Positions 1-57,966 of a DNA stretch of 64,000 nt are shown here, piece after piece. Below the pieces are notes generated by a model, which saw nothing but the letters and a program-made list of their open reading frames with translations, had not been told where the DNA came from and searched no databases. Made by a program: the position numbers and the translations under genes. Origin of the DNA: Candidatus Omnitrophota bacterium (GTDB lineage: Bacteria; Omnitrophota; Gorgyraeia; Zapsychrales; Fredricksoniimonadaceae). The first letter of the stretch is position 1. The number at the start of each line of letters is the position of its first letter. The stretch lies in assembly GCA_963828495.1 (NCBI GenBank), contig CAWHFJ010000011.1, forward strand, positions 32,623 through 96,622, written 5' to 3'.

Positions 1-1096
1 CATAAAAGTCGGCAATTTTATTCAGCATCATCCCCAGGTTTCCTGTCGACTCTCCGACCGATATCATATAGGTCACATCCTTGGCAAATTCCCGTCGAGC
101 CATAAGCGCCGTATGGATACCTTCACCCTTCTCTACACTATCGTACACTGTCTCCACAATCTCCACAAACACGGCATTTTCCAGGACCTGCTCCAATATT
201 TTAAAACTCTGCAGCAGAGGGACACCGGTATCAAGCATAGCCGCCAGGGTACGGCAAAAACGCGCCACCAAAATCTTTTTAATTAAAGAACCGACCAGAG
301 GCAGCCGGAGCACAAAACGGTCAAAAAAATCCTTGCCTATCTTTGTTTCCAAAAATACTTTAACACCAAAAAACACCCCTATCAACACAGGAATATAATA
401 AAACGGATATTGTCTGATCCAAAGCCCTGCCGCATAAAGCATCCGGGTGGGAAGAGGCAAAGGGACGTTGGCCTTGGTAAAAATCTGCACAAATTGAGGC
501 ATAAGAAAAGTAATAATAAGCACCACAATGCTTATACACGCCGTCAATAAGACAATCGGATAAATCATCATCCCCCTGATAGTCTGCCTTAAATTATCCT
601 GTTTTTCTAAATAGACAGCCATGTCTTTTAACACTTTGGACAAAGTCCCGGACATTTCCCCCGAACGCATCATGTTGACAAAAAAATTAGAAAAAACATC
701 AGGGAAAAAGACCAAACTTGCAGAAAATGAAGAGCCATCAGATATGTGCTGGCTCACTTGACGCACGACGGCGGCCAATTTCGGGTTGGTCAACTGTTCA
801 CCTGTAATATTAAGCGCGTTCAATAAAGGGATCCCCGCATCGGTCATGCTTGAAAGATTAGTGCAAAAAATCATCAGATCCCGCGGCTTTACTCGAGGAG
901 AACCGAACGCCATATTCCCAGATAACACAGGAGAAGCTTTTCTTTTAACTTCAGGAGGGTTGTGGTGACTGACGGCGATGGGGGTGTACTGTTTCTGGCG
1001 CAATTGGTTAATAACATCCTGCGGGGAGTCCCCTGTTATCTCGCCTGCCACCAACCCACCGGTATTATTTCTCGCTTTATAAGAATATAGTGTCAT
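1..1096 (-). CDS. Inner-membrane platform protein of type II secretion / type IV pilus systems (GspF/PilC family); 3' end runs off the window
   Basis: Not in the ORF track because it is open at the window edge. Own translation of the minus strand from ATG at 1096..1094: MTLYSYKARNNTGGLVAGEITGDSPQDVINQLRQKQYTPIAV...MIFCTNLSSMTDAGIPLLNALNI...FFVNMMRSGEMSGTL... A second repeat follows: FCRTLAAMLDTGVPLLQSFKILE...ISVGESTGNLGMML. This is the duplicated T2SSF-domain pattern with hydrophobic helices between the repeats. Confidence 0.85.
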   Translation of the reverse strand, partial: MTLYSYKARNNTGGLVAGEITGDSPQDVINQLRQKQYTPIAVSHHNPPEVKRKASPVLSGNMAFGSPRVKPRDLMIFCTNLSSMTDAGIPLLNALNITGEQLTNPKLAAVVRQVSQHISDGSSFSASLVFFPDVFSNFFVNMMRSGEMSGTLSKVLKDMAVYLEKQDNLRQTIRGMMIYPIVLLTACISIVVLIITFLMPQFVQIFTKANVPLPLPTRMLYAAGLWIRQYPFYYIPVLIGVFFGVKVFLETKIGKDFFDRFVLRLPLVGSLIKKILVARFCRTLAAMLDTGVPLLQSFKILEQVLENAVFVEIVETVYDSVEKGEGIHTALMARREFAKDVTYMISVGESTGNLGMMLNKIADFY

Positions 1097-1110
1097 TTTA
1101 ATAGATTAAG

Positions 1111-1130
1111 ATTCCCGCTTTCGCGGGAAT
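1111..1130. other. Perfect 8-bp stem / 4-nt loop hairpin in the spacer between the ATPase and platform genes
   Basis: ATTCCCGC-TTTC-GCGGGAAT read directly at 1111..1130, between the ATPase stop (1149) and the platform gene start (1096). There is no U-tract, so an intra-operon RNA processing or stability element is more likely than a terminator. Confidence 0.4.
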
Positions 1131-1148
1131 GACAAAAATGGAATTAAA

Positions 1149-2777
1149 TTATTCATCCTGGGTCATTTGATACACTTCTTCTTTGGTCGTAAGTCCCTGG
1201 GTAACTTTTTCCATACCATTATCCCGCAGGCTTTTCATGCCGGCCGCTAAAGCCGTGTGATGAATTTCTTCACTGGAAGCTTTCTTGAGAATCAAGGAAC
1301 GGATTTTCTCATCAAACTCAAGCAACTCACAAATACTGGTACGCCCTTTATAGCCGGTCATCAAACAAGCCGTACAGCCGCCACCGCCACACTCCTTACA
1401 TTTTAAACGGACCAATCGCTGGGCCAGGACACCGATAATCGAAGATGCCAGTAAAAAAGGTTCAACCCCTATATCCAAAAGACGGGTCACGGCCCCGGCC
1501 GCATTATTCGTGTGTAAAGTCGCCAACACCAGATGACCGGTTAAAGCCGCCTGTATCGCAATTTGAGAGGTCTCTGCGTCGCGGATCTCTCCGATCATAA
1601 TGACATCAGGGTCCTGTCTTAATATGGCACGCAAACCATTGGCGAATGTTAAATCCACCTTAGGGTTGACCTGCGTCTGGCGAATACCCGGCAGACGGTA
1701 TTCCACAGGGTCTTCAATCGTCACAATCGAAAGCTGCGGGTCATTGATCGTGCTGATAGCCGAATACAACGTCGTCGTCTTACCGCTTCCGGTCGGTCCT
1801 GTGACTAAAATAATCCCGTTAGGCCTCTCTAACAGACCGCGGAATTTAGTTAACATCGGCTCCTGAAAACCAATCTGCTCAAGGCCTAACCGTATATTGC
1901 CGGTATCCAAAAGCCGCAGGACAATATTTTCTCCATAAACTGTCGGCATAGATGAAACGCGGATATCGATACGTTTGTTTTCTACCCTCATTTGAATACG
2001 TCCATCCTGGGGCTTGCGCAGCTCCGAGATGTCTAACTTTGATATAATTTTGATGCGCGAGATAATCGCCGCTTGATATTGTTTCGGCGGAGAGGTCTGC
2101 AGATGCAGGACCCCATCAATTCTAAACCGGATAGCCAATGAATTTTCTTCCGGCTCCACATGAATGTCGGAAGCATCTTCACTGACGGCCTTGGTAATCA
2201 TGGAATTGACAAAAGCCACTACCGGGGCCCCTTCGATAAGATCATTGGAACGCGAAATATTAATTTCTTCCGCCTCTAGCGCCGCTTTCTGTGGAGAAAT
2301 TTCAGCATTCTTTAAAATCCCCTCCATCTCCCCTTTAGGCGCATAAAATTGATCGATCGCCTTCTTTATTTCATCCTCGGTCGCAATAGCCGGATCAATC
2401 GTCAAGCCTGTTCTTGAGGCCAGATCATCCTGTACATAAATATTAAAAACATCGACCATGGCACAGGTCAAGCTATTGCCTATTTTTAATACCGGCATGA
2501 CCAAATGTTTACGCGCCAGTTCTTCGGGGACAAGCTTGACCACCTGGGGATCAATCAGTAAATATTCCAACTCGATACGCGGGACATCCGTATGGCCGGT
2601 AATAAATGCCACCATCTTATCCTGCGGTATAAACCCGAGTCTGGGTAAAACTTTAAAAATAGAATCGCCTGTTTTTTGCTGCTCAATCTTGGCCGCTGCC
2701 AATTGAGACTGGGAAATAATCCCTTTCTCCAGCAAAAGCTCATCCATCGATTTTTTACCGTATGTATTCATGAACAA
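1149..2777 (-). CDS. GspE/PilB-family secretion ATPase (type II secretion / type IV pilus assembly)
   Basis: 542-aa ORF. It has an N-terminal T2SSE_N-like segment (LLLEKGIISQSQLAAAKIEQ), Walker A GPTGSGKTTT, an Asp box (IMIGEIRD), a His box (LVLATLHTN) and a Cys cluster (CKECGGGGCTAC). Confidence 0.9.
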   Translation of the reverse strand: MFMNTYGKKSMDELLLEKGIISQSQLAAAKIEQQKTGDSIFKVLPRLGFIPQDKMVAFITGHTDVPRIELEYLLIDPQVVKLVPEELARKHLVMPVLKIGNSLTCAMVDVFNIYVQDDLASRTGLTIDPAIATEDEIKKAIDQFYAPKGEMEGILKNAEISPQKAALEAEEINISRSNDLIEGAPVVAFVNSMITKAVSEDASDIHVEPEENSLAIRFRIDGVLHLQTSPPKQYQAAIISRIKIISKLDISELRKPQDGRIQMRVENKRIDIRVSSMPTVYGENIVLRLLDTGNIRLGLEQIGFQEPMLTKFRGLLERPNGIILVTGPTGSGKTTTLYSAISTINDPQLSIVTIEDPVEYRLPGIRQTQVNPKVDLTFANGLRAILRQDPDVIMIGEIRDAETSQIAIQAALTGHLVLATLHTNNAAGAVTRLLDIGVEPFLLASSIIGVLAQRLVRLKCKECGGGGCTACLMTGYKGRTSICELLEFDEKIRSLILKKASSEEIHHTALAAGMKSLRDNGMEKVTQGLTTKEEVYQMTQDE

Positions 2778-2786
2778 CGCTCTCTA

Positions 2787-3173
2787 TTAAACCTTAAGCA
2801 ATTCGCGGACCTTCTGGGTAAAAACCGAGACATTCAGAGGTTTGTTACAAAACGCATTGGCCCCCACCTGTTCAGCACTCTTTTTGACGGATTCCTCGGC
2901 GGAAGCGGTGAAAATAATGACAGGGATATGGCGATAACGCTTATCGGCCTTGATCAAAGCACAAGCTTTCATGCCATCCATTTTAGGCATCATCTGGTCT
3001 AAGATGATCAAATCGACCGAACTTTGCTTGATTGTAGCTAAAGCTTCCTGACCATCCCCGGCTTTAAGGACTTGAAGATCCATACCCTCAAGGACCTTCG
3101 ACATCAAAAGTACTTCCTTGATATCATCATCCACGACGAGCACCTTTTTCTTTGCCGTTTCGTTGGGTATCAT
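2787..3173 (-). CDS. Stand-alone response regulator receiver domain (CheY/PilH-like)
   Basis: ORF 2787..3215 trimmed to the ATG at 3173 (MIPNETAKKKVLVVDDD), which avoids overlap with the secretin stop at 3175. Receiver motifs are VVDDD, the acceptor Asp in LIILDQMMPKMDG, IIFTA and NKP. There is no output domain. Confidence 0.85.
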   Translation of the reverse strand: MIPNETAKKKVLVVDDDIKEVLLMSKVLEGMDLQVLKAGDGQEALATIKQSSVDLIILDQMMPKMDGMKACALIKADKRYRHIPVIIFTASAEESVKKSAEQVGANAFCNKPLNVSVFTQKVRELLKV

Positions 3174-3174
3174 A

Positions 3175-5004
3175 TTATTTCTTCCCCCCTCTGTCATCCA
3201 AAGGCACACACTCATTAACCATACTTTCGGCCTCTTTCATATACGGACTTCTGGGGACATCCTCTTCCATCTTGATGAGGGTTTTGTCCCCCGCCGCACA
3301 ATCCCCAAATTCTTTTACATAAATATAAACTATTCTGTACCAACAAAATCCGGCTTCACTCGATTGGGGGAATTCCTCTAAGATCATCCTGTAAGTTTTG
3401 ATCTGCTCCTCGCTGATGTTAAGGTTTTGGGCGGAATCTTTAGATTTATCCTCATCCAATCCTTTGGCATAATCCAGAAGCCCTTTAATCAGATTGCTGT
3501 CCTGGCCTCTTTTATTGTTATCCGACAACACAACGGGCGGCGCCATCGAGACGATATGGGGAGTGATCAACACCGTCAAGGTCCCATCGTTGACCAATGA
3601 AGAATCATGATGGAAAAACCAGCCTATAATAGGGATCGACATAATCCATGGCGTGCCGTTTTTCGTCAGGTTGGTATTCCTGCTATCCAGCCCTCCGATC
3701 ACTATCGTTTCGTTGTTTCTGACCCTGACCTCCGTCGAAGCCGAGGTCGTGGCAATATCCGGATTGCCATTGACAAGACCGATGAGCGAAGACACTTCCG
3801 GCTCGACTTTTAAAGTGATCCACCCGTCAGGAGAGACAAACGGCGTAACCTTGAGCTTGGTGCCGATATCAATATATTGCGTCTGGGTCTGGTTAACCAC
3901 ACTGCCGCCGGTCCCCCCCGCCGTAGACGTCGAGGACACATACGGATAGTGGTCTCCGATCAAAATGCTCGCTTCATGGCCATTCAAGGTGGCAATGGAC
4001 GGAGACGCTATCACGCGCGCCTTATTCTCGGTCACCAAAGCATTGATGGCCAGAACCGGAGAAAAATGTTTCCAGTTACCTAACAAACTGGATACACTCC
4101 CGTCGGAGGTGTTGCCTGTAACTTGTGTCGTGGTACCTGTACCGGAAGCCACCGTACCCGTAGAAGTACTCGTACCTGTAGTACCGGAAGAATTAGACGT
4201 ATTAAGAGCGTTTGTATTAGTCGTATTAAGGGTATTCTCAATAGTCCGGGTTGCTCCCGAGAGCAAACTCACACCCATCCCGGTAGAAGGGCTATACGTG
4301 AAATTCATGGTGGCACCGATGTCCTTAGAGTATTGTTTCGAAATATTCACGATCTTGGCATCGATCATAACCTGTAAGGGCGGCACGTCAATGCCCTTGA
4401 GATAGGACTTGATTAACTGCATATCCACAGGATTAGCGGTGACGACCAGGGCATTAGTGTCCTCATTTTCCTGAATAGTCCCCTTAAATTTGGTCTTGGC
4501 TGTGCTTAATAAAGTTTTGGCTTCTTTAATGGTCAAAAAACTTAACGGCAATGTTTCAGTCGCCTGATCAAGCTCCTCCTGGGGACAGACATAAACAATA
4601 CCCCCCTTGCGCATAAACCCGTAATTATGCACACTCAAAATCGCATTTAAAGCATCATCCAGAGAAAAATCCTTCAATTTCGCGGAAATCTTGCCTTCTA
4701 AATTTTTGGTTATAATAATATTGATGTTATAAGAATAGGCTATCGCTTTAAGAACGTCCGTCAGGTCCGCATTGATGTAATCTAAAGAAATCAATTTTGG
4801 GCCCGATACAGTGACCTTCTGGTCGGATTGTTGCGATTGCACGGAGTCCGGAGAAATAATCTCTAAAGACGACGAGCCCCCATTGGGCACAACAGGCTCA
4901 TCGGCAAATAAAGTCAACGGCCCTAAAAATAACATTAGAACCAGACTTATAATAAAATAATATCTTAATGTCCGGCGCAGAGACATCCTCCGAATAAAAG
5001 GCAT
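3175..5004 (-). CDS. Secretin (GspD/PilQ family) with a low-complexity insertion and a C-terminal extension
   Basis: ORF 3175..5049, with the start placed at ATG 5004 (MPFIRRMSLRRTLRYYFIISLV, signal-like). The N-domain shows LISLDYINADLTDVLKAIA. The secretin core shows VIASPSIATLNGHEASILIG, TKLKVTPFVSPDGWITLKVEPEVSS, IVIGGL, PIIGWFF and LTVLITPHIV. Confidence 0.85.
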   Translation of the reverse strand: MPFIRRMSLRRTLRYYFIISLVLMLFLGPLTLFADEPVVPNGGSSSLEIISPDSVQSQQSDQKVTVSGPKLISLDYINADLTDVLKAIAYSYNINIIITKNLEGKISAKLKDFSLDDALNAILSVHNYGFMRKGGIVYVCPQEELDQATETLPLSFLTIKEAKTLLSTAKTKFKGTIQENEDTNALVVTANPVDMQLIKSYLKGIDVPPLQVMIDAKIVNISKQYSKDIGATMNFTYSPSTGMGVSLLSGATRTIENTLNTTNTNALNTSNSSGTTGTSTSTGTVASGTGTTTQVTGNTSDGSVSSLLGNWKHFSPVLAINALVTENKARVIASPSIATLNGHEASILIGDHYPYVSSTSTAGGTGGSVVNQTQTQYIDIGTKLKVTPFVSPDGWITLKVEPEVSSLIGLVNGNPDIATTSASTEVRVRNNETIVIGGLDSRNTNLTKNGTPWIMSIPIIGWFFHHDSSLVNDGTLTVLITPHIVSMAPPVVLSDNNKRGQDSNLIKGLLDYAKGLDEDKSKDSAQNLNISEEQIKTYRMILEEFPQSSEAGFCWYRIVYIYVKEFGDCAAGDKTLIKMEEDVPRSPYMKEAESMVNECVPLDDRGGKK

Positions 5005-5097
5005 ATTTTTACGTATTATTATTCTATGGATATATTGATTTATAAACAAGAATAAACTGGAATATTTTAGGATAGGAATTAGGCTCGGCAGGGGAAA

Positions 5098-5595
5098 CTA
5101 TATCTCTTGCCTGGTGCCATAGACCAGGGACAGCCCAATGGCGCCGTTTAGTTGAGTCACCTCTTCTTGAACGGTCCGGATCAGGCCATTATAAGCACTG
5201 GATGATGTGATTTGAATTTTATTACCTGCGGTCACAACCCATATCGTATAACTTGAAAATCCTCCATCCAGCGATTCCTGACAGGGCAAAGTTGGAGTCA
5301 GCGTACACGAGGCAGGCAAAGTCCCTGCCGGCGCATAATTCCCGGCCGAAGCAGGATAAGGCGTTGTGCGCCAGGAGGCATTCGTTGTCCCATCAGGAGC
5401 TGTATTTCTTAAATAATACACCGCTTTGTTCGCCCCCGCTTCCGCAAGATATAACGCCTGGGTGCTACTAACCAGGGCACTGGCATTAGTGCTGTTGACC
5501 ATGACCATATTAATAAACAGCGAGGACAAAATCGTCAGGCAAATCATAAACATCAAGGTCATCAACAAAACACTGCCCCTGGATTTGTCAGGCAT
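5098..5595 (-). CDS. Minor pseudopilin-like protein (GspK/PilX-type, no Glu5)
   Basis: 165 aa. It has a short basic N-terminus followed by a hydrophobic helix (RGSVLLMTLMFMICLTILSSLF) and lacks the Glu5 of canonical pilins. It is the last gene of the pseudopilin run. Confidence 0.5.
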   Translation of the reverse strand: MPDKSRGSVLLMTLMFMICLTILSSLFINMVMVNSTNASALVSSTQALYLAEAGANKAVYYLRNTAPDGTTNASWRTTPYPASAGNYAPAGTLPASCTLTPTLPCQESLDGGFSSYTIWVVTAGNKIQITSSSAYNGLIRTVQEEVTQLNGAIGLSLVYGTRQEI

Positions 5596-5599
5596 ATGG

Positions 5600-6721
5600 C
5601 TAATTCCCTATCCCCGCATTATAAAGTTGGGACACTTCACTGGCGGACAAAACCCGGTTATAAATACGGACGTCGTCTATGGAACCGTTAAAAGGAATGG
5701 CGGTCCCGCTATTGGACATCCCTATAGTTAAGGCATGAGCGCTTATCGTAGTAATTAACGCCGCCGTAGCCGTTGCGACAGAAACCCCGTTAACATAAAA
5801 AGTCACCGCCCCCCCGGAGCCCAACGTCACGACAACATGGGTCCAGACATTATTGGGAATACTTAAAGCGCTCGATGTCACCGATTGACTGGTATTATAA
5901 CTAAATGTTAATGCAGGTCCCGCAGGGGCCAACTCTAAACCATATTCCCTGTCTGTCCCCCAGTTACCATATTCTACGATCGCCTGATTACTAGCCGCAT
6001 TGCTCGGGTTTATCCAGGCTGACAATGTTATTGTACCTGTCACTTGCAGGGAAGAGCTGCCGGAAACACTCACATACTGACTATCGGCACTATTAAAACT
6101 CATCGCCCCGTTAATGGGGTCTGAGGCGATGGCTCCTGTTGTCCACGTCGGAGAATTAAAACACATCCCTATGTTATTATTACCGCTGGACTCTGTAAGC
6201 ACCACACCCAAACACGTCCCTGATGTTGCTTCATCAAATTGCCACCAGCCCGCCAGTCCAATGGGCATATTTCTGGGCATAATATTATTTTGCAGGCGGA
6301 CACTTGTCCCGTTTTGCACAGCGGTCATATCAATGGTCACCAGACCATTGCTGCAGGTAAAAATATTAACTACACTCGCGCCCGGGGTCTGTATGCCTGT
6401 GGCCCTGGTCACTCCCCCATCGGTCACTAAATTCGAACCGCTTAACGCAAAGGTATAGGACGCCAGTCCGCTGCCTAAATTAGCGGTAAATGTTAAAGAA
6501 GTCGAGGAACATGACGTAATACTTTGGGCGTTAGACAATTCTCTGGCCATCAGGTCCATCGCCTGGGAAAGTTTGGTCCTTATAGTAATGCGATCCTGGC
6601 CGGAATCAAAAGCGCGAAAGCATGTCAGGTAGGCGAACATGATGCCGACAACCAAGAGCCCCACCAGGACCATGGCCATGAGCATTTCAAGAATGGTAAA
6701 ACCTCTTTGGGGCGTCATCAT
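5600..6721 (-). CDS. Pseudopilin with a C-terminal LamG (concanavalin-A-like lectin) domain
   Basis: 373 aa. Prepilin signal QRG|FTILEMLMAMVLVGLLVV with Glu5. The C-terminal part shows the LamG_3 pattern NVWTHVVVT...VTFYVNGV...FNGSIDDVRIYNRVLSASEV. Confidence 0.8.
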   Translation of the reverse strand: MMTPQRGFTILEMLMAMVLVGLLVVGIMFAYLTCFRAFDSGQDRITIRTKLSQAMDLMARELSNAQSITSCSSTSLTFTANLGSGLASYTFALSGSNLVTDGGVTRATGIQTPGASVVNIFTCSNGLVTIDMTAVQNGTSVRLQNNIMPRNMPIGLAGWWQFDEATSGTCLGVVLTESSGNNNIGMCFNSPTWTTGAIASDPINGAMSFNSADSQYVSVSGSSSLQVTGTITLSAWINPSNAASNQAIVEYGNWGTDREYGLELAPAGPALTFSYNTSQSVTSSALSIPNNVWTHVVVTLGSGGAVTFYVNGVSVATATAALITTISAHALTIGMSNSGTAIPFNGSIDDVRIYNRVLSASEVSQLYNAGIGN

Positions 6722-6722
6722 T

Positions 6723-7127
6723 TTAAGACGGTTGCGCCAATAACGTCGTTAAAGAAACTGAACTTTGCATCAAACCCAGCTGCCAGGAAACATACACTGT
6801 GACTTGTGTGGTCGGATTGCTATTAGTACCGCTTGCGGAAGGCAAAAAAGTCACCTGCCTGGAATAGTTCGCAAAACTTCCCGTCAGCGGGTTGAGCCCT
6901 GTAGGAAAATTTGTCGTGTTAATATTCGCATACGGAGTATTTTTAATGGTCTCCATCTCTTCCTGGGCCAAATTCAAAGCGATGGCTTGTCCCTCTATGG
7001 AACTGTCGGTATATACGCCGGCGGCCATAGCACTGACAACAGCCACCACCCCGAAAACAATCAGGACTGTGGCGAGCAAAACTTCGAGGAGAGTAAAACC
7101 TTTCTTATCCGGGGGAAAATACTTCAT
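6723..7127 (-). CDS. Minor pseudopilin (GspI/PilV-size) with a prepilin N-terminal methylation motif
   Basis: 134 aa. KKG|FTLLEVLLATVLIVFGVV with Glu5. Confidence 0.75.
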   Translation of the reverse strand: MKYFPPDKKGFTLLEVLLATVLIVFGVVAVVSAMAAGVYTDSSIEGQAIALNLAQEEMETIKNTPYANINTTNFPTGLNPLTGSFANYSRQVTFLPSASGTNSNPTTQVTVYVSWQLGLMQSSVSLTTLLAQPS

Positions 7128-7172
7128 GACAATTATTTCAATTGATATGACGAACTTCTCGCACTATTTATC

Positions 7173-9581
7173 TTATGAGCAGAAAACTATCGCATGCGTT
7201 GAACCAGAGGCGCTGGATGCCGGCCCTGTTCCGGCAGCATTCGTGGCTGTTACTGTAAATGTATAAGACGCCCCATAGGTCAATCCCATCACAGTCAACG
7301 GACTCCCTGTTCCTGTCCCTGTCAAAGAACCGGGATTAGATGTGGCTGTGTAGGACGTGATCGCGCTGCCACCATTTGATGCCGGCGGTGTGAAGGTAAC
7401 GGTCGCTTCTGCGGCGTCCGCGGGGCCCCCATCTATATAATATCCACACTGACTGGCGGCAACACCGGTTGGCGCTCCAGGCACGGTGTAGGGTGTGACT
7501 GAATTAGACGCGCTTGATGCTGCCGAAGTCCCTACGGAGTTTGTTGCCGTGACTGTAAATGTATACGACGTGCCATTGGTCAAGCCTGTGACAGTCCCCG
7601 GACTGCTTGTGCAAGGCTGTATTTGACCGAAACTTGACATTACCGTATAGGACGTTATCGCGCATCCGCCATCTAAGGTCGGTGGCGTAAACGTCACTGT
7701 GGCCTGTGCATTGCCTGCAGTCGCGCTACCTATGACTGGAGGCGCAGGGACACTACAGCTAGACGAACAAGTATTCTTAACAGCCACATTATGTACTAAG
7801 AAACTATCCGCATAATAGTCATGACCTCCGTCTAATTTGGGGTTATAAACAACGGAATCTTTAGCTGTTTTAAATTCAATCTTGTTAATACGCACCTTGC
7901 CGCTAAGAGTAACAAGCTCGTCGCCTATTTTAAGTTGTCCTATTTTAAGCTTAGGGTTTTCCTTCCTGGCTATTTGAGGATTAAGCGCCTTCCATCCATC
8001 GGTGGTCATAAAACTATGGCTGTCCGTCACAAAATACCGCCCGCCGTTAAAGGCGTAAACCTTCCAGTCTTGCCTGCGCCTGATCATAAGCTCAAGTAGC
8101 TTGTTATGCCCGCCTTGAGCACCTTGAAGAATATCCCCACCTTTAAGATCTTGAATTTCTACGATCCTGCCGTTGGCTAGTAAGATCTTAGTTCCTGAGA
8201 CAAAACATCCCAAATAATGGCAAATGCTGCTGCAACATTGTGAATCACTAGAACAGCCCAAGCCATTATTTACACAGGGTGTCACCGCATTAGATGCGCT
8301 TGATGCAGGGCCTGTGCCAACAGCATTTGTCGCTGTAACTGTAAATGTATATGATGTGCCATTGGTCAAGCCCGTGACCGTCTGGCTGGTGCTTAATCCC
8401 GACGATGTCAATCCGCCAGGACTGGACGTGACCGTGTAGGATGTGATCGGGCTGCCGCCATTGGATGCAGGGGCGCTGAAAGTAACGGTCGCTGACGCAT
8501 TACCTGCCGTCGCGCTCACACCGGTTGGAGCGCCCGGAACAGTATACGCAACCGGTGTGACCGCATTAGATGCGCTTGATGCAGGGCCTGTGCCTACGAC
8601 ATTCGTTGCCGTTACTGTACATGAATAAGAATCACCATTGATAAGACCGGTCACCGTCTGTGAAGTGCTTAATCCTGATGATGAGCCTACAACGTCTACC
8701 ATTAGACTCTGACATACTACAGTATAAGATGTGATCGGGCTGCCGCCATTGGATGCAGGGGCGCTGAAAGTAACGGTCGCTGACGCATTACCTGCCGTCG
8801 CGCTCACACCGGTCGGAGCGCCCGGAACAGTATAGCATACACCGCTGATACAGCTGCCTGCACATACACTGCCGCAGCTGCCGCAATTACTCGCATCTGA
8901 ACTCAACGTGCTGCAAGTGCCATTGCAACCGGTCTGCCCGCCGGCACAGCAAGTCCCATTAGTGCAAATCTGACCGGCACTACATACGGTTAAGCTCGTC
9001 CCGCAATAGCCGGTATTCGAACTGACATCCACACAAGTGCCATTGTAACAACGCTTACCGCCGGTACAGCCGCCGCAGCTGTCTGTGGCTGCGCCTGCCC
9101 CTGCCGTGTTGGCCGCACCAACATTACAGCCGCTGCCGTTGGTGACACACACAGCATTGTTGCTAATTGCAACTGAACCATTAGGGCCTATGCTCACCGA
9201 ACCATTGCCTGTCGGGCCTTTAGAATAAAGCACATAATATTTCCCGTTGGCAGAGACCTGATAACCATATTCCGTGCTATTGCCAGCGATGAAAGGATCG
9301 TACAAAACACTCCTAATAACCTTAGGGGACGCTTCGGTTAAAGTAGAAGCCCCCAGAGAAGTGCTTGAATTAGGATAGGTATTGTTGTTATTTAAATAGT
9401 AGGCTGTGACCGCCGCCTGCATGGTCTTAAGTTCAGCCTGGGCCTGGGAGAGTTTCCCCGAGTTCTGCATACCTTTATACATCGGCAGCCCGACGCTGAT
9501 CAAAATAGCCGCAACGGCAAAAATAACAAACAACTCTAATATGGTCTGGGATTTCTTATTAAGGAAGGCGGAAAAATTCAT
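7173..9581 (-). CDS. Giant pseudopilin fusion: GspG-like domain + Cys-rich region + 2 FN3 + Cys knot + Hint (BIL) domain + 2 FN3
   Basis: Single 802-aa ORF.
- aa 1-144 form a GspG-like pseudopilin: KKS|QTILELFVIFAVAAILISVGLP with Glu5, AELKTMQAAVTAYYLNNNNTYP, and LYDPF...YGYQV...YYVLYSKGPTGNG.
- aa 145-250 carry about 24 Cys.
- FN3 units begin PGAPTGVSATAGNASATVTFSAPASNGGSPITSYTV and end SYTFTVTATNAVGTGPASSASN.
- The Hint domain is aa 459-598. Confidence 0.85.
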   Translation of the reverse strand: MNFSAFLNKKSQTILELFVIFAVAAILISVGLPMYKGMQNSGKLSQAQAELKTMQAAVTAYYLNNNNTYPNSSTSLGASTLTEASPKVIRSVLYDPFIAGNSTEYGYQVSANGKYYVLYSKGPTGNGSVSIGPNGSVAISNNAVCVTNGSGCNVGAANTAGAGAATDSCGGCTGGKRCYNGTCVDVSSNTGYCGTSLTVCSAGQICTNGTCCAGGQTGCNGTCSTLSSDASNCGSCGSVCAGSCISGVCYTVPGAPTGVSATAGNASATVTFSAPASNGGSPITSYTVVCQSLMVDVVGSSSGLSTSQTVTGLINGDSYSCTVTATNVVGTGPASSASNAVTPVAYTVPGAPTGVSATAGNASATVTFSAPASNGGSPITSYTVTSSPGGLTSSGLSTSQTVTGLTNGTSYTFTVTATNAVGTGPASSASNAVTPCVNNGLGCSSDSQCCSSICHYLGCFVSGTKILLANGRIVEIQDLKGGDILQGAQGGHNKLLELMIRRRQDWKVYAFNGGRYFVTDSHSFMTTDGWKALNPQIARKENPKLKIGQLKIGDELVTLSGKVRINKIEFKTAKDSVVYNPKLDGGHDYYADSFLVHNVAVKNTCSSSCSVPAPPVIGSATAGNAQATVTFTPPTLDGGCAITSYTVMSSFGQIQPCTSSPGTVTGLTNGTSYTFTVTATNSVGTSAASSASNSVTPYTVPGAPTGVAASQCGYYIDGGPADAAEATVTFTPPASNGGSAITSYTATSNPGSLTGTGTGSPLTVMGLTYGASYTFTVTATNAAGTGPASSASGSTHAIVFCS
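7788..8207 (-). other. Hint / bacterial intein-like (BIL) domain, 140 aa, no endonuclease
   Basis: aa 459-598: CFVSGTKILLANGRIVEIQDL (intein block A with Cys1), VTDSHSF (TxxH block B), and VVYNPKLDGGHDYYADSFLVHN (blocks F/G ending His-Asn). The residue after Asn is Val (HN|VAVKNTC). Hand counts give ~38% GC on the lines at 7801 and 7861, against 60% on the flanking FN3 line at 8461. Confidence 0.85.
8441..8834 (-). repeat. Intragenic tandem FN3-unit repeat with near-identical DNA
   Basis: 8441..8546 and 8729..8834 are 105/106 identical; the only difference is ccggtTggag versus ccggtCggag. The offset is 288 nt, or 96 codons. A second pair, 8281..8318 and 8557..8594, has 1 mismatch at an offset of 276 nt. 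Confidence 0.9.
8832..9149 (-). other. Cysteine-rich region (aa 145-250) of the 802-aa protein
   Basis: CVTNGSGCNVG...DSCGGCTGGKRCYNGTCVDVSSNTGYCGTSLTVCSAGQICTNGTCCAGGQTGCNGTCSTLSSDASNCGSCGSVCAGSCISGVC. These are repeated short C-x-G-x-C spacings. No family name can be assigned by eye. Confidence 0.6.
9150..9581 (-). other. GspG-like pseudopilin module of the 802-aa protein (aa 1-144)
   Basis: See the motifs listed for the parent CDS. The class III signal is unusual because Ser, not Gly, sits at position -1 and Gln at +1 (NKKS|QTILE). Confidence 0.7.
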
Positions 9582-9630: not shown

Positions 9631-10032
9631 CTATAGAAAATACGCCATCAATAATCCAGCGTATAATAACAGCGATCCAGGTAAAGGTCTGTAAAGAAAA
9701 CATCGAGCCGTATTGACGATACAGCGGCTCTGAAAAAAAAGCTGTGCGCTATAGGTGTGCCGTAAAGGAAGGGTGATGATACAATAGTACGCAAAAACCA
9801 CCAAAATTTTTCGAAACGCCTCGGAGAGACAAAGAACGCCTATCCCGCAGGCTAATCCCAGCAGCCTGAATATATAAGAACCGATAAAACGTATCTTAAG
9901 AAAAGGCCCTGCCCACTCATGATTGACTTGGGCATAAAAAGCATACGCGGGCATGTGGCGCAGTAAGTCCAGGGACGTGACAATCAGTATCACTCCGAAT
10001 ATGATGACGCCCAGGGGCCTCTTGTGTTTCAT
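9631..10032 (-). CDS. Hypothetical small membrane protein
   Basis: ORF 9631..10152 trimmed to MKHKRPLGVIIFGVILIVTSLDLL. Its ATG overlaps the recO stop as ATGA. It has several hydrophobic helices and no recognisable family. Confidence 0.45.
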   Translation of the reverse strand: MKHKRPLGVIIFGVILIVTSLDLLRHMPAYAFYAQVNHEWAGPFLKIRFIGSYIFRLLGLACGIGVLCLSEAFRKILVVFAYYCIITLPLRHTYSAQLFFQSRCIVNTARCFLYRPLPGSLLLYAGLLMAYFL

Positions 10033-10762
10033 GACAAAAATCTCGTCGAACGCAACTGGCGCTCCAGATGGAACACCAAAAAATGGTTCAATATGTATTT
10101 CAGCTCTTTCTTCACAAACGGGGCTAACCCTAAACGAATCGCGTCCCCCCATGCGTTCTTTTGAATATGCAGAATAGAGGCCACCGCCCCCGGAGAAATC
10201 GGCGTCGCCTCTCCCACAGGGTCCTGCATGCCGGACACAAAAGGCCTCCTAAACGCAAACTGAAACGCGGCCTTGCCGCCACCTGTTGGCTACAGCGCAC
10301 ACAAGCCTCCAAATGCGGCTGAAAACCTGACAATGATAAAATCTTGATCTGAAAAGTCTGGACTAATTTGCCCACATCCCGGGTCGTTTGCAGACTTTTT
10401 AAAAAAGCCCGGGTCAACTCATAAATCTCCAGGTTCTCTTCTTCCGGCGGCATCAGCGCATCAATCAACTCCGAGGCATAGCTGGCAGCTGTCATACACT
10501 CTAAATCCCGACGAAAACCCGCAAAAAAATCTTTCATGTCGCAATGGCTGACTAAATGCAGATCGCTGTTGCGGTATTGGTAATAAACGATATCATTGAC
10601 GGAGAATTTATCGACGCTGGAGCCGAATTTTTGAGGGTCGCGGCGGATGCCTTTTAAAACACCTTTGACCTTGCCGAAATCCCGTGTAAAAAAGGTGGCA
10701 ATGCGGCTGGTCTCACGGAAATCAAAGGTCTTGAGTACAATGCCTTCAGTTTTTACAATCAT
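10029..10762 (-). CDS. recO: DNA repair protein RecO (apparent 1-nt frameshift near 10225)
   Basis: The N-terminus MIVKTEGIVLKTFDFRETSRIATFFTRDFGKVKGVLKG and the CxxC...CPAC zinc motif lie in ORF 10130..10762. The conserved C-terminus (DPVGEATPISPGAVASILHIQKNAW...LERQLRSTRFL) continues in ORF 10029..10238 in another frame, directly after CPAC. Confidence 0.8.
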
Positions 10763-10800: not shown

Positions 10801-11622
10801 ATGTATAAAGATTTTTATAAGCTCAAAGAACTGCCCTTTAACATCACCTCCGACCCGGATTTCTTTTTTTCTCCATCGCGCCACGAAGAGGCCTTCAATC
10901 ATCTGATTTACGGCATCAACTCACGTAAAGGCATCATTGTGATTACCGGTGAGATCGGCACGGGCAAAACAACACTTTGCCGCACCCTGCTTAACCGTCT
11001 GGACAAAACAGTTAAAACCGCGCTCATCTTAAACCCCAGTTTTTCAGATTTACAATTGCTGCAGATGATCATCAATGATCTAGATATCCGCTATACTAAA
11101 AAAAACAAACTTGATCTGGTGGGCGCCATCACCCTGTTTTTAATCGAACAATCCGCCAAAGGTAATAATGTGGCCGTCATCATCGACGAATGCCAAAATC
11201 TGAACATCCGCCAATTAGAACAGATACGGCTTTTATCCAATCTGGAAACCGAAAAAGAAAAACTGCTGCAAATCATTTTGGTCGGCCAGCCGGAGTTGGT
11301 CGAAAAACTCAAAAACCCCGCCCTGCGCCAGCTGACCCAGCGGGTGACCGTGCGTTACCACATTCTTCCCCTGCAAAAAAAAGAGGTTGAAGATTATATC
11401 AAACACCGTCTAAGGATCGCCGGGGCTGATAGCAAACTGCATTTTACCCCGCAAGCCATTGAAACTATCTACGCCATCTCACAAGGCACACCACGGGTCA
11501 TCAATATCCTCTGCGACCGCGCTTTGCTCGCCGGATTCACGCGGGAAACATTTACTATCGACCATTCCATGATCCACGAAAGCGCCAAGGAGACGCAATA
11601 CGCTTATGAGTATCATTCATGA
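10801..11622 (+). CDS. ExeA/GspA-like AAA ATPase (secretin-assembly accessory family)
   Basis: 273 aa. LPFNITSDPDFFFSPSRHEEAFNHLIYGI, Walker A GEIGTGKTTL, Walker B VAVIIDECQNL, and ILVGQPEL. This is the typical ExeA / MshM (AAA_22) layout. There is no C-terminal peptidoglycan-binding domain. Confidence 0.85.
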   Translation: MYKDFYKLKELPFNITSDPDFFFSPSRHEEAFNHLIYGINSRKGIIVITGEIGTGKTTLCRTLLNRLDKTVKTALILNPSFSDLQLLQMIINDLDIRYTKKNKLDLVGAITLFLIEQSAKGNNVAVIIDECQNLNIRQLEQIRLLSNLETEKEKLLQIILVGQPELVEKLKNPALRQLTQRVTVRYHILPLQKKEVEDYIKHRLRIAGADSKLHFTPQAIETIYAISQGTPRVINILCDRALLAGFTRETFTIDHSMIHESAKETQYAYEYHS

Positions 11623-15915: not shown

Positions 15916-16983
15916 CTATCTCTTAAGCGAAGACAAGAGTTTTCTGAATTTTTTTTGAGAAGCTAGGCTCACAAAAGCGTCGACAACTTTAGGGTCAAAC
16001 TGGGAGGCGCTATGTTTGACCAATTCACCCAGCGCGCCGTCCACCGACAGCGACGGACGATAGGGCCTTCCTTGCACCATGGATTCAAAGGCATCGACGC
16101 AAGCAATGATACGGGCCCCCAAAGGAATCTGCTCCTTTTTAAGCCCCGAGGGGTAACCGCTCCCATCGTATCTCTCATGGTGATAAAAAATAATGGGCAG
16201 CACGGGTTTAAGAAATCCGACAGGCTTGATCATATCCACACTATGTGCGGTATGCCGACGGATAACTTTCAATTCGGCCGGTGTTAATTGTCGACGTTTG
16301 GATAAAATGTCATACGACACGTCGATAACACCGATGTCATGCAACAGGCTGGCATATTCCAGTTGTTTTAACCCCTCGCTGTTGACTTTTAAAAAGACGG
16401 CAATCATTTTAACTATTTCCATATAGACGGGCGCGTGAGTCAACCCCGAATGAGATTGTTTCCTAAGCAAATTCCCCATGGAGGCGATTGAGCCCAACAT
16501 GACTTGTTCCTGCTCCTGGCGCAGCTGCAGATTTTTAAGAGCGGTCACCACCTGCTCGGCAAAAACGGAAAGCATCTCGCGGTCAAAATCACTGAAAGGC
16601 CTCTCACCCTTCTGGCGATGCACAAAAATGGCCCCCAGATAATCGTCAGCCACCAGAGGCAGCCCTAAACAATCGCCCCTCACAACCGAAGCCCCCCGGG
16701 TCACACTCGTCACGTCTTTCTCCACATCCCTCAAGTCTTTGGGTCTGTCCCGCCAAATGTTAATTTGATTGTCAAAACTGGCACAGACGATCACATTCTT
16801 TTTGACCGGATGCGTGAGATAGACACTCGCCGAAGAGGCCCGGATAAACTGGCATAATAAACGGGTCAGCCGCAGCGTCAATTCCTTCACTGTATACGTG
16901 GAATTGACCAAACGGTAAACCATGTGCACCGCCGAGAGGATCAAATGATAACGTTTGGATGCAGGCATAAAATTCAAAGCCAT
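15916..16983 (-). CDS. GAF domain + HD-GYP domain protein (putative c-di-GMP phosphodiesterase)
   Basis: HDIGV...HHERYDGSGYPSGL is the HD-GYP signature. The N-terminal ~150 aa are GAF-like. Confidence 0.85.
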   Translation of the reverse strand: MALNFMPASKRYHLILSAVHMVYRLVNSTYTVKELTLRLTRLLCQFIRASSASVYLTHPVKKNVIVCASFDNQINIWRDRPKDLRDVEKDVTSVTRGASVVRGDCLGLPLVADDYLGAIFVHRQKGERPFSDFDREMLSVFAEQVVTALKNLQLRQEQEQVMLGSIASMGNLLRKQSHSGLTHAPVYMEIVKMIAVFLKVNSEGLKQLEYASLLHDIGVIDVSYDILSKRRQLTPAELKVIRRHTAHSVDMIKPVGFLKPVLPIIFYHHERYDGSGYPSGLKKEQIPLGARIIACVDAFESMVQGRPYRPSLSVDGALGELVKHSASQFDPKVVDAFVSLASQKKFRKLLSSLKR

Positions 16984-35236: not shown

Positions 35237-36307
35237 TTATTTTTTCCCGAATAGAGCTCTTAATTCATTGATGTCCGTCGAAAAATTCAAAGCGGTCTCA
35301 TAAGTGATAATATCTTTTTCATAAAGCTCTTGAAGAGATTTATCAAAAGTGCGCATCCCATATTGCCCGCCGGTTTGAATGGCCGTACGCAGCTGTTCCA
35401 CGGCTTTCTCACGGATCATGTTACGCACACCCGGTGTAGCTATCATGATTTCCGGGACCATGATCCGGCCCTGACCGGAAGCCCTGGGGGCCAATTTCTG
35501 GGAAATCACACCCTGTAAAACCGCCGAAAGCTGCAGACGGATTTGCTGCTGCTGATAGGGAGGAAAAACATCGATAATACGCTCAACGGTTTGCGGGGCA
35601 TCCGGGGTATGTAACGTGGCTAAAACCAAATGCCCGGTTTCCGCCGCGGTCAGTGCCGTTGAAATCGTCTCCAAATCGCGCATTTCCCCTATCACAATCA
35701 CATCCGGGTCCTGGCGTAAACAATGCTTGAGCGCTTCCGCGAACGAATTGGTATCCCGGTAAACCTCACGCTGCTTGATAACCGATTTTTTATTCGTAAA
35801 AATATACTCAATGGGGTCTTCGATGCACATAATCACACAAGTCCGCTCGGAATTGATCAAATTAATAATCGACGCCAATGTGGTGGTTTTACCGGTACCT
35901 GTGGGACCGGTAATTAAGACCAACCCATTTTGCTTGCGCGCCAGGTCCGTAATCACCGGCGGCAATTGCAACTCTTCCATAGAAGGGATAAATAAAGAGA
36001 CTCGACGTAAAGCAGCCTCCACGGATCCCCGTTGAATATGCACATTCACACGGAAACGATCCATACCGGATAGGGCTAAAGAAAAATCCAGTTCCTTATC
36101 TTGCTCGAATTTAACTTTCTGCGCTTCGGAAAGAGCGCCATAAATCATCTCCTGAATTTGCTCGCGGCGAAGAGGCTCGACGCTCAGAGGCACCAGACGC
36201 CCATCAATACGAAAAATGGGTGGCGTATTTTCAGTCAAATGCAAATCAGAAGCTTTTTGCTCAATAGTCAATAAAAGAAGTTCCCGTAGGTAAGGAGTTT
36301 TTCCCAT
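35237..36307 (-). CDS. pilT: Type IV pilus retraction ATPase PilT
   Basis: ASDLHL, GPTGTGKTTTLAS, IVIGEMRDLETI, HLVLATLHT, and the AIRNMIRE-like motif GVRNMIREK. Confidence 0.9.
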   Translation of the reverse strand: MGKTPYLRELLLLTIEQKASDLHLTENTPPIFRIDGRLVPLSVEPLRREQIQEMIYGALSEAQKVKFEQDKELDFSLALSGMDRFRVNVHIQRGSVEAALRRVSLFIPSMEELQLPPVITDLARKQNGLVLITGPTGTGKTTTLASIINLINSERTCVIMCIEDPIEYIFTNKKSVIKQREVYRDTNSFAEALKHCLRQDPDVIVIGEMRDLETISTALTAAETGHLVLATLHTPDAPQTVERIIDVFPPYQQQQIRLQLSAVLQGVISQKLAPRASGQGRIMVPEIMIATPGVRNMIREKAVEQLRTAIQTGGQYGMRTFDKSLQELYEKDIITYETALNFSTDINELRALFGKK

Positions 36308-55829: not shown

Positions 55830-57421
55830 TGTATGATACCATTGTTCTGATTTGGGTAGGCTTTATATTCTTTGCTGCAGTATTTTTCGTAAGCGCCGCC
55901 ATCGTATATCTGTTTCAAAACAAAAAAATGGGATTTGATAAAGGATTTCTGCTTTCTTCATCCGCATGCCTGGTTGCGCTTATGCTTTGTCTTTCCATAG
56001 GGCCTGCGATGCATCGCGTTTACCAAGATGAATTCGCCTATATTTCTCAGTCCGTCAATATTCTTTCTTCCGGTCGCCCAAGCATAACATTAAAAGGCAG
56101 TCGCCTTCAACCAGAACTCTTCGCTTCATGGACAACTAATACGAAACTTCCGGGATTTGCCTGGCTTGAGGCGGTTGTATTGTTTGTAGCCCATGATTTT
56201 GAACACAGTTATTTTATATTAAACATAATTTTGGGGACCCTATCGGTCGCAGCGGTTTACAGGATTGCCTGGACTTTGACCACAAGTCATACTGTAGCCT
56301 GGTGGTCGGCGATTTTCTTGGCCTGTTTGCCTGCGCGTATTACTTACTCCATGTCCGCTGGGTCTGATATCGCCGGGTTGTTTTTCTTCCTTCTGTTTCT
56401 TATGTTCATCAGTGAATACAGGGCTCTGCATCTCAAGCGCATTTTGTATGCCGGGCTTTTTTGCGGCATATATAGTATTTGTATTAAACCGTTATATGGC
56501 ATTTTTGTCATTTTTGGATTAGCGTCAGCTTTGTATATTTATCGACGGGATGGTTGGCTGGATAAAAAGCTATACTTACAAATATTGTCAGACAGCGTTT
56601 GTTTATTTTTACCGATCTTGAGTGCTATCCCTTTTATGTTATTGTCTGACTCGAAGGCAGCCGCCTACTCTTTTCAGTTTATATTTAAGAACCTTCACAC
56701 TAGTATTTCCTATTTGTTTAACTATAAACAGAACACTCCTTTAACAGCTTGGGCGGCATTAATGGCTATTGGGCGAAGTGTTTTTTATAAAAAAGACAAT
56801 TTGGTAAATGGGCTCGCAGGATGGTTTTTGATGGGGCTTTTGATGATATCGGTTTTTTGTGCAGGTGGTATTTCTTATCCGGGTTACGCTTATTCGGACC
56901 GTTATATTCTTTTTTTCATTTTTCCGTTTGTATTTTTAGCCGCAAAAGGGATGGTGGCTATCAAAACAAGGGGTCGGCCTCGTCTTTTAGACGCACTGTT
57001 TTTTATTATATTAATTATAAATGCGTTTTTTGCTTCAAGAAATCTTGTTACCGATGCAAAAAAAATATTCTTCTATAAAAAAACATTATTATTAAAACAG
57101 GCGTTCCCATTCGTCCCCAATGAGGCCTATATCATAGATGAATCTGCCGCTTCGATTATGGCGATAACTTCTAAGAAATCAATCCAGATGGCTATTTTTT
57201 TGAACGGAAATTATCCTGAGAAAGTGGTTTATCTGAAAGGCATGTACGACAATGTGCCCGATAATCCTAATGACATATATAATCCCCATGATCCCAAAAA
57301 GTTAGTCTTGCTTGAAAATATTCTGAACACTAGGTATCGTTGTAAGCCGTTGGTGGCCGTACCTTTAAAAGAAGGGTACTTATCGGCAACGCCATGTCTT
57401 TGCACACGAAAAAATGATTAA
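55829..57421 (+). CDS. GT-C fold membrane glycosyltransferase (ArnT/PMT_2-like)
   Basis: 530 aa with about 11 predicted TM helices. A first-loop YQDEFAY motif resembles the DE motif of the GT39/GT83 families. The gene is AT-rich relative to its neighbours. Confidence 0.55.
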   Translation: MYDTIVLIWVGFIFFAAVFFVSAAIVYLFQNKKMGFDKGFLLSSSACLVALMLCLSIGPAMHRVYQDEFAYISQSVNILSSGRPSITLKGSRLQPELFASWTTNTKLPGFAWLEAVVLFVAHDFEHSYFILNIILGTLSVAAVYRIAWTLTTSHTVAWWSAIFLACLPARITYSMSAGSDIAGLFFFLLFLMFISEYRALHLKRILYAGLFCGIYSICIKPLYGIFVIFGLASALYIYRRDGWLDKKLYLQILSDSVCLFLPILSAIPFMLLSDSKAAAYSFQFIFKNLHTSISYLFNYKQNTPLTAWAALMAIGRSVFYKKDNLVNGLAGWFLMGLLMISVFCAGGISYPGYAYSDRYILFFIFPFVFLAAKGMVAIKTRGRPRLLDALFFIILIINAFFASRNLVTDAKKIFFYKKTLLLKQAFPFVPNEAYIIDESAASIMAITSKKSIQMAIFLNGNYPEKVVYLKGMYDNVPDNPNDIYNPHDPKKLVLLENILNTRYRCKPLVAVPLKEGYLSATPCLCTRKND

Positions 57422-57445
57422 TAAAAAATAAGGGCGCCTTATTTC

Positions 57446-57952
57446 TTATTTAGCGCTGAAATAATCTTCGTAATCTGAGGGAAATTGGTGGGTCATATTG
57501 CGGATGGTGCCTTGCTCATCAATAAAAACCATCGTCGGCACTCCAACCAAATGGTAGGGCTCCTGAAAAACATTCTCCTCATCGATAAAACAGCTTAAGT
57601 TTATCTGGCGTCGGATTAAATATTCTTTGACAGCTTCTTTGCTCTCGCCTACGTCCACCAGGATAATCTTGATCCCCTTCTCATGGACTGATGCCAAAGC
57701 TCCGTTGATTTTACCCAGTTCCTCATAGCAGTGAGGGCACCAGGTGGCCCAAAAAACCAAAATGGCTTTTTTCCCCTCACGGGCGTTGATGACGCTGGCC
57801 GATGGTCCATCAGAGTTAGGCAAAACAACATCCGGCGCTGCCTTGCCTATTAAAAAGTCTTGAGAAGACTCTGTGTAGAAATCTCCCCTGGCCCAAACTG
57901 ATGTTGAAAAAGATAAAAATAGAATTAAGAAAATTAGACGCAAATAATGCAT
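57446..57952 (-). CDS. TlpA-like thiol:disulfide oxidoreductase (thioredoxin fold)
   Basis: Signal peptide and ILVFWATWCPHCYEEL (the WCPHC active site). Confidence 0.8.
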   Translation of the reverse strand: MHYLRLIFLILFLSFSTSVWARGDFYTESSQDFLIGKAAPDVVLPNSDGPSASVINAREGKKAILVFWATWCPHCYEELGKINGALASVHEKGIKIILVDVGESKEAVKEYLIRRQINLSCFIDEENVFQEPYHLVGVPTMVFIDEQGTIRNMTHQFPSDYEDYFSAK

Positions 57953-57966
57953 GCTACAAACTCCCC

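Follow-up and report, generated by a model that had tools for sequence, protein, structure and literature searches.

A gene cluster on the minus strand of a Candidatus Omnitrophota bacterium, at positions 1-9581 of a 64,000-nucleotide stretch of DNA (the window), raises two questions: whether a type IV filament machine can do without alignment proteins, as its gene content in the window would suggest, and what a stand-alone CheY-like receiver is doing between its secretin and its motor ATPase. The first question has a plain answer. The window holds the first eight genes, about two-thirds, of a 12-gene operon, and the appearance of a minimal machine is an artefact of the window edge. As to the second, the operon probably encodes a complete type IVa pilus (T4aP)-like machine in which the receiver gates the motor.

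Gene calls were based on a listing and translation of the open reading frames (ORFs), followed by Pfam and NCBIfam scans. These confirm eight closely packed minus-strand genes, in the place and order given by the original prediction, a first reading of the DNA without database searches: four prepilin-type proteins, a secretin, a receiver, an ATPase and a platform protein. In gene order (a slash within a motif marks the cleavage site), they are:

7173-9581 (-), 802-residue modular pilin (fn3, 138 bits; Hom_end_hint, 23.5 bits; T2SSG, 19 bits; TIGR01710, 31 bits)
6723-7127 (-), 134-residue minor pilin, PilV-, GspI- or ComGE-like (motif KKG/FTLLE)
5600-6721 (-), 373-residue minor pilin with a C-terminal LamG domain of concanavalin-like, lectin type (N_methyl, 25.9 bits; Laminin_G_3, 108 bits; motif RG/FTILE)
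5098-5595 (-), 165-residue minor pilin, PilX- or GspK-like (PilX_N, 21 bits, below the cut-off of 25.5)
3175-5004 (-), secretin, 609 residues in the database gene call (Secretin, 148 bits; Secretin_N, 37 bits)
2787-3173 (-), stand-alone CheY-like receiver, 128 residues (Response_reg, 90 bits)
1149-2771 (-), extension-type ATPase, 540 residues (T2SSE, 453 bits; MshEN, 71 bits)
1-1096 (-), platform protein PilC/GspF, 365 of its 412 residues in the window, cut by the left edge (T2SSF, 164 bits, two repeats)

The gaps between these genes, calculated from the coordinates, measure 45, 1, 4, 93, 1, 15 and 52 nucleotides. The gap of 93 nucleotides upstream of the secretin is counted from the start at 5004 and shrinks to 48 with the longest secretin ORF (start at 5049).

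The left flank was read from L087, a Logan contig that stems from the sample of the window DNA. It is identical to window positions 1-1137 at 1137 of 1137 bases and runs 5.1 kb further left, while the neighbouring contig L081 equals positions 1112-5736 at 4625 of 4625 bases. The secretin (P0001), the platform (P0121) and the giant pilin (P0241) are recorded on one 99,907-bp contig; the secretin is 100% identical to its database entry P0001, and P0121 is the full-length platform protein, 412 residues long and 100% identical to the part encoded in the window. As the original prediction had anticipated, the operon continues past the left edge: L087 completes the platform gene and adds four more. 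The first product is a canonical 151-residue major pilin (KKG/FTILE), 42% identical to the first 153 residues of the 802-residue protein and with GspG (37 bits) as its top NCBIfam match. The second, of 527 residues, matches Pfam PilM_2 with 94.9 bits (cut-off 27) and TIGR01175 pilM with 122 bits (cut-off 133). After its PilM domain it carries the PilN signature INLLP (residue 370) and then a transmembrane segment, a succession that is invariant in five orthologues and identifies the protein as a PilM-PilN fusion. INLLP and the transmembrane segment are also present in a Margulisbacteria outgroup locus (L174), whose gene matches Pfam PilN. The third product, PilO-like, is 163 residues long and has one N-terminal transmembrane segment; its orthologues score 25 bits (L082) and 16 bits (L088 and L086, same profile region) against Pfam PilO, whose cut-off is 22. 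The last is a PilP/GspC-like protein of 135 residues with a C-terminal beta domain and weak T2SSB, CdsD_C and GspC matches, as seen in all four orthologues. Since family and PDB searches gave little for these last two proteins, their identities rest on position, size, transmembrane segment and homologues. The genes that follow are convergent, so the operon ends there; it spans about 12.7 kb and 12 genes, or possibly 13 with a small membrane gene upstream.

The view that this is a streamlined type IV filament machine, devoid of PilM/N/O/P- or GspC/L/M-type alignment proteins, had been drawn from the window itself. The genes for these proteins and for a prepilin peptidase are truly absent from positions 1-9581, as tblastn and Pfam confirm, and the rest of the 64 kb holds no PilM/N/O/P or GspC/L/M either (Pfam; tblastn with E. 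coli Gsp proteins and with the Omnitrophota PilM-PilN, PilO- and PilP-like proteins). Their lack is nevertheless caused by the window boundary: inspection of the left flank finds PilM-PilN, PilO-like and PilP-like genes immediately downstream in the same organism (100% overlap with L087). The PilM-PilN gene is also present in four of four relatives, and the PilO- and PilP-like genes in the three that reach that far. A streamlined machine is therefore almost certainly the wrong reading, and nothing in the locus speaks for a type IV filament machine of minimal make-up.

The four related Omnitrophota loci have secretins 75% (L088), 66% (L082), 50% (L084) and 43% (L086) identical to that of the window. 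A common order of secretin, receiver, ATPase, platform, pilins and PilM-PilN gene is found in L082, L084, L086 and L088/L089, so that the synteny check proposed with the original prediction finds the receiver layout kept in all four. The PilO- and PilP-like genes come next in L082, L086 and L088/L089, and L084 ends within the gene that follows PilM-PilN. The pilin genes vary in position: all of them follow the platform gene in L084 and L086, only major-pilin copies do so in L082, and the minor pilins have moved ahead of the secretin in the window and in L088. Other Omnitrophota genomes (L001, L025, L033) hold a different filament system, with two or three tandem PilB-like ATPase genes ahead of the platform gene; L025 and L033 also have PilM and a secretin further downstream, and L001 stops short of that distance. 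No receiver adjoins these tandem-ATPase loci.

The receiver lies between the secretin and the ATPase in five of five orthologous loci (the window, L082, L084, L086 and L088). In the window it starts 1 nucleotide past the secretin stop and ends 15 nucleotides ahead of the ATPase start. Its identity across the five loci (54-78%) is like that of the platform (52-78%) and above those of the secretin (43-75%), PilM-PilN (40-72%), and PilO and PilP (31-60%). All five orthologues keep the acidic pocket D15/D16/D17, the acceptor D59, T89 and K111-P112 unchanged, and F108 occupies the aromatic switch position. Among solved structures the receiver is closest to the first receiver domain of PleD (84 bits). 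It is a canonical CheY-like domain and, with these residues intact, is predicted to be phosphorylatable. A more distant relative, L173, whose secretin is 37% identical, has no gene between secretin and ATPase and instead carries two receiver genes immediately ahead of that for the secretin, each about 30% identical to the window receiver. There is no receiver in the Margulisbacteria outgroup L174, and none adjoins the ATPase in any of 80 ATPase loci from other lineages. These loci came from a genome-contig scan with the window ATPase and serve as outgroup and reference only; none of their ATPases is orthologous, with identities of at most 48% over most of the protein and at most 58% over the conserved core. 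The fixed position, the conservation, and the L173 and outgroup comparisons establish that the association between receiver and pilus operon is real and lineage-specific. A metagenome-contig scan with the receiver alignment was discarded: its 80 loci all hold unrelated receivers, drawn by the generic K[VI]LVVDDD motif, none has a secretin or platform gene, and a distant ATPase occurs 5 kb off in one of them.

CheY-like regulators such as PilG/PilH and PixG/PixH control type IV pilus motors and govern pilus extension or polarity, and PATAN-domain regulators are reported to interact with the pilus motor (PMC11656802, PMC10519157, PMC11181946, bioRxiv 10.1101/2021.06.11.447907). PilG and PilH are single-domain receivers, as here, and PixG has an added PATAN domain. 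Their genes, however, are part of chemosensory operons that also encode a CheA-type kinase and a receptor, rather than of a structural operon, whereas the Omnitrophota receiver has no kinase, receptor or PATAN domain nearby and is closest to the first receiver of PleD rather than to CheY. As CheY-like control of pilus motors is already known, a receiver within the structural operon is a new arrangement of a known idea; no paper describing it was found in the literature searched, which is weak evidence of absence.

In the proposed mechanism, the four pilins at the head of the operon would be tip or minor subunits (the 802-residue protein being modular and adhesin-like, the others PilV-like, LamG-bearing and PilX-like), followed by a PilQ-like secretin, the receiver, a PilB-like extension ATPase and a PilC-like platform. 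The off-window end would contribute the 151-residue major pilin, the PilM-PilN fusion and the PilO- and PilP-like proteins, and a PilT encoded 25 kb away would complete the set. Such a machine would build a retractile adhesive pilus with large lectin and fn3 modules at its tip. The receiver would be co-translated with the motor and phosphorylated by a histidine kinase encoded elsewhere; in its phosphorylated form it might bind PilB, PilC or PilM and thereby gate pilus extension, on the model of PilG/PilH and PixG/PixH from other bacteria. Phosphorylation-controlled filament assembly, the role first proposed for the receiver, is thus plausible by analogy: its position in five loci, its 54-78% identity and its invariant residues have strengthened the proposal without turning it into an observation. 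Omnitrophota are uncultivated, mostly ultra-small and suspected predators or parasites, for which pili are proposed attachment devices (PMC10066038). A pilus operon with its own receiver in every orthologous locus suggests that a two-component signal switches attachment at the machine itself, and not only through transcription.

The receiver might alternatively have no part in motor regulation and serve as a phosphate sink, as a connector for an unrelated two-component pathway or as a structural remnant. Some observations favour this and count against a motor-gating role. No kinase is found in the cluster: none was recognised in the window (by Pfam up to 18.6 kb, by reading of the translations beyond), in L087 or in the 10-kb flanks of most relatives, L082 having a histidine kinase and receiver pair 9 kb upstream. 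Receivers of a single domain are widespread and promiscuous, and the best matches of this one are generic (PleD, PhoB, CheY). The receivers adjoining the L173 operon are not orthologous, and at about 30% identity the association there may be independent. Against such a role stand the fixed position and tight spacing in five loci and a conservation that equals or exceeds that of structural components, while a degenerate remnant would not retain intact catalytic residues with the full acidic pocket. A receiver unconnected to the motor is doubtful.

The pilins are a second distinctive feature of the operon. A pattern search in all six frames found only three canonical class III signal peptides. 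The signal peptides of the 134-, 373- and off-window 151-residue proteins are canonical. The 802-residue pilin comprises a pilin domain (residues 1 to about 152) of weak GspG likeness (T2SSG 19 bits, TIGR01710 31 bits), a Cys-rich segment, two fn3 domains, a Hint or bacterial intein-like (BIL) domain (residues 459-597) and two further fn3 domains. Its putative cleavage site, KKS/QTILE (9530-9581, -), has Ser at -1, where Gly is near-invariant in prepilins, and Gln at +1. This counts against the pilus reading; the 802-residue pilin may be processed poorly or left anchored in the membrane. A homologue search with it is dominated by the fn3 repeats, and the one true orthologue that it yields is P0242, a 1327-residue protein of L088. 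The 134-residue pilin scores below the cut-offs of ComGE (32 bits), PilV (30 bits) and GspI (26 bits), and has orthologues in L084, L086 and L088. The 165-residue pilin lacks Glu5 (G/SVLLMTL), as do PilX and GspK. Its earlier label of GspK-like holds as an analogy only, there being no T2SSK match. Its orthologues in L088, L084 and L086 have 394-592 residues and include a LamG domain; as N- and C-termini match across them, the LamG module has been deleted in the window organism.

The Hint domain (window 7791-8207, -) matches PDB entry 2LWY, a "bacterial intein-like domain", from end to end (E=7e-5) and keeps Cys1, the TxxH block (VTDSH) and the terminal HN. The residue after HN is Val or Ala (Val in the 802-residue pilin), which makes the domain BIL-type rather than a classical intein. 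L088 has it in two major-pilin paralogues (L088:1437-2345 and L088:2422-3321), about 15 residues before a conserved C-terminal CVTNGSGC, and L084 in a 743-residue LamG pilin (L084:16247-18478). No paper on Hint or BIL domains in pilins was found in the literature searched, and of all parts of the locus this domain is perhaps the most novel. Modular type IV pilins with grafted adhesive modules are known, for instance PilB and PilC of Streptococcus sanguinis. The likeness lies in a pilin N-terminal domain followed by lectin-type or adhesive modules; the Omnitrophota modules differ in that they include fn3 arrays, Cys-rich segments and the intein-like Hint domain.

These pilins also bear on a possible role in DNA uptake. 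In many bacteria natural transformation is powered by machines of T4aP-like type that include a secretin and PilT, and the weak ComGE-like match of the 134-residue pilin (32 bits) would suit a machine that is primarily a competence pilus. No ComEA, ComEC or DprA was seen beside the operon in the window, in L087 or in the relatives' gene tables, however, and the large lectin and fn3 pilins point to adhesion. A primary role in competence is very unlikely.

The machine that is closest in content is the T4aP, clusters of which TXSScan finds in nearly all Omnitrophota classes (PMC10066038). With the T4aP of Pseudomonas, Myxococcus and Thermus the system shares a PilB-like ATPase with an MshEN-type N-domain, a PilC-like platform, PilM, PilN with its INLLP, PilO- and PilP-like proteins, a secretin, a major pilin, a PilX-like minor pilin without Glu5, and PilT. 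The last is encoded among housekeeping genes 25 kb from the operon:

35237-36307 (-), PilT-type retraction ATPase of the PilT/PilU family (TIGR01420 pilT_fam, 463 bits, cut-off 319)

This protein passes the cut-off of its model, and its functional tie to the operon is putative. The likeness to T4aP has its limits: all genes but those for PilT and the peptidase stand in a single operon of T2SS-like order, PilM and PilN form one fused protein, AMIN domains are missing from the secretin, which bears a C-terminal tail, PilY1 is absent and it is the pilins that have LamG, fn3 and Hint modules, and a receiver gene lies between pilQ and pilB.

The secretin is composed of an STN/N0 domain, a single Secretin_N domain, a linker rich in T, S, G and N, the secretin domain and a C-terminal tail of about 110 residues. 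PilQ is its best NCBIfam model (207 bits, cut-off 284), ahead of GspD (188 bits, cut-off 351) and MshL (105 bits), all scores being below cut-off. Some 31 close database clusters make up its family, beyond which E values jump from 7e-77 to 1e-47; all members with a named source are Candidatus Omnitrophica. The last 110 or so residues (window 3175-3500, -) resemble YbgF/TPR_6-type repeats. The homologues P0024, P0029 and P0030 carry Pfam TPR_6 or YfiO matches, and L082 has a separate 635-residue TPR gene just upstream of its secretin. The C-terminal extension could be a built-in pilotin-like module.

The ATPase joins an MshEN-type N-terminal domain, a T2SSE core and a compact CxxC-x4-CxxC zinc motif, and scores 579 bits with TIGR02538 PilB (cut-off 676) and 577 bits with GspE (cut-off 630). 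Its top PDB matches are PilB proteins, that of M. xanthus (473 bits, residues 9-461) being followed by those of Geobacter and Thermus. A neighbour-joining tree was built from 90 ATPases of context-labelled loci together with E. coli GspE and HofB, rooted on PilT and bootstrapped 100 times. All 100 bootstraps recover the five receiver-linked ATPases as one clade; in none is this clade sister to that of E. coli and Comamonadaceae GspE.

A type II secretion system (T2SS), whose periplasmic pseudopilus would drive folded proteins out through the secretin, with secretion regulated by the receiver, is the reading to set against a T4aP-like machine, and a number of results weigh on its side or count against the T4aP-like reading. 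With the receiver set apart, the order D-E-F-G-minor pilins-L-like-M-like-C-like is collinear with E. coli gspDEFGHIJKLM, as seen in L084 and L086, the window having its minor-pilin block upstream of the secretin instead. The PilM-PilN fusion has the architecture of GspL. The best matches of the major pilin (GspG, 37 bits) and of the platform (GspF 288 bits, PilC 255 bits) are to T2SS proteins. The core of the ATPase is a flat 56-58% identical to ATPases from T2SS contexts (GDEF, EFG(K)D and chlamydial DEF), and T4aP ATPases from PilB-PilT-PilC contexts are absent from the 45 closest to it. In the tree, the sister group of the receiver-linked clade shifts between replicates. For no core protein does the score reach the equivalog cut-offs that NCBIfam sets for PilB, GspE, PilQ, GspD and GspF. 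The alignment proteins add to the difficulty: the PilO-like protein of the window organism has no family match, its PilP-like protein has only sub-threshold ones, and profile searches with both against PDB sequences returned nothing meaningful. A prepilin peptidase (A24) is found neither in the 64-kb window nor in L087 (tblastn with E. coli GspO; Pfam) and is presumably encoded elsewhere in the genome.

The zinc motif also bears on this choice. It lies at residues 462-482 or so (window 1300-1400, -); in most PilB and GspE proteins the Cys pairs stand about 27-33 residues apart. The compact form is common to the five receiver-linked ATPases, to the Comamonadaceae secretin-ATPase-platform (GDEF) clade, which groups with E. 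coli GspE, and to the Omnitrophota ATPase of L001. Read as kinship with the T2SS-like Comamonadaceae clade it would favour a secretion system; this was set aside, since a core identity that is flat at 56-58% to T2SS-context ATPases across lineages and gene contexts shows no specific affinity.

Several results contradict a T2SS. The Omnitrophota proteins match neither Pfam T2SSL and T2SSM nor models of GspC and GspK, and tblastn with E. coli GspL, GspM and GspC gives no hit; the GspC-like matches are weak and confined to the last, PilP-like gene. It is PilM that is called, with an INLLP of PilN type, and PilT is present. Pilins of 373-802 residues with LamG and fn3 modules fit an exposed fibre, not a periplasmic piston. 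The ATPase stands outside the E. coli and Comamonadaceae GspE clade in every bootstrap, and its best structural matches are to PilB. Compared with the Gsp and Eps systems of E. coli and Vibrio, the likeness is one of gene order, GspL-like fusion, GspG-like pilin and GspF-like platform. A T2SS is unlikely. The T4aP-like assignment draws on the PilM and PilN signatures, the PilO match in an orthologue, PilT, the PilB-like relatives of the ATPase, PilQ as top secretin model and the modular pilins, and we conclude that, as judged from its sequence, the locus encodes a putative T4aP-like machine, one of a distinct subtype that is restricted to Omnitrophota and T2SS-like in its synteny. Of the earlier suggestion of a distinct member of the type IV filament superfamily, the distinctness is retained, with an ATPase clade of its own and scores below cut-off; the gene content is that of a full T4aP-like set.

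This distinctness can be carried further. The operon might represent an Omnitrophota-specific filament branch, of a layout between T4aP and T2SS, in which the receiver is a fixed motor partner and the pilins carry self-acting Hint domains. The receiver would then supply the regulatory input that cyclic di-GMP (c-di-GMP) supplies to MshE-type ATPases, and, once exported, a fibre or tip adhesin with an intact Hint domain (Cys1, TxxH, HN) would be able to undergo self-cleavage or to acquire a reactive thioester, for release from, or covalent attachment to, host or prey cells. Such a branch is decidedly unlikely.

The MshEN motifs of the ATPase are degenerate when compared with the tandem c-di-GMP motif RLGxx(L/V/I)(L/V/I)xxG(L/V/I)(L/V/I)xxxxLxxxLxxQ: they read SMDELLLEKGII...Q and SIFKVLPRLGFI...H (SMD..., SIF...), and the NCBIfam c-di-GMP_motif model gives 29.3 bits (cut-off 38). 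The motif is missing from all six receiver-linked ATPases. The idea that the receiver substitutes for lost c-di-GMP binding was dropped, because most other ATPases examined are also without the motif, which does not discriminate. To note, the mannose-sensitive haemagglutinin (MSH) pilus shares with the operon an ATPase N-domain of the MshEN family and the presence of an ExeA/MshM-like AAA ATPase gene, here 1.2 kb upstream on the other strand. The operon differs from it by degenerate c-di-GMP motifs, by a secretin score for MshL (105) far below that for PilQ (207) and by the ExeA-like gene, which is not found at the relatives' loci.

Upstream of the 802-residue pilin gene, after a gap of 49 nucleotides (from the coordinates), lies the small membrane gene mentioned above:

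9631-10032 (-), small protein with several transmembrane segments (listed ORF 9631-10152, likely start Met at 10032)

It has no Pfam match. In L082 the TPR and secretin genes are immediately preceded by a homologue of 47% identity (L082:7447-7923), and from this one orthologous locus the gene is possibly the first of the cluster, encoding a conserved extra component. Rfam detects no riboswitch near the operon, and promoter and terminator scans give background level only.

Further out, the ExeA/GspA/MshM-like AAA ATPase (10801-11622, +) matches AAA_22 with 94 bits and TIGR03015, "PEP-CTERM system-associated ATPase", with 290 bits (cut-off 324). It was considered as a part of the system and set aside as probably unrelated, not being found near the relatives' loci. 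A GAF and HD-GYP protein (HD_5, 136 bits; 15916-16983, -), 6 kb from the operon, is likely a c-di-GMP phosphodiesterase, as judged from its domains. The G+C content is 0.38 at positions 62001-64000 and 0.41 at 56001-58000, as against about 0.46 elsewhere in the window.

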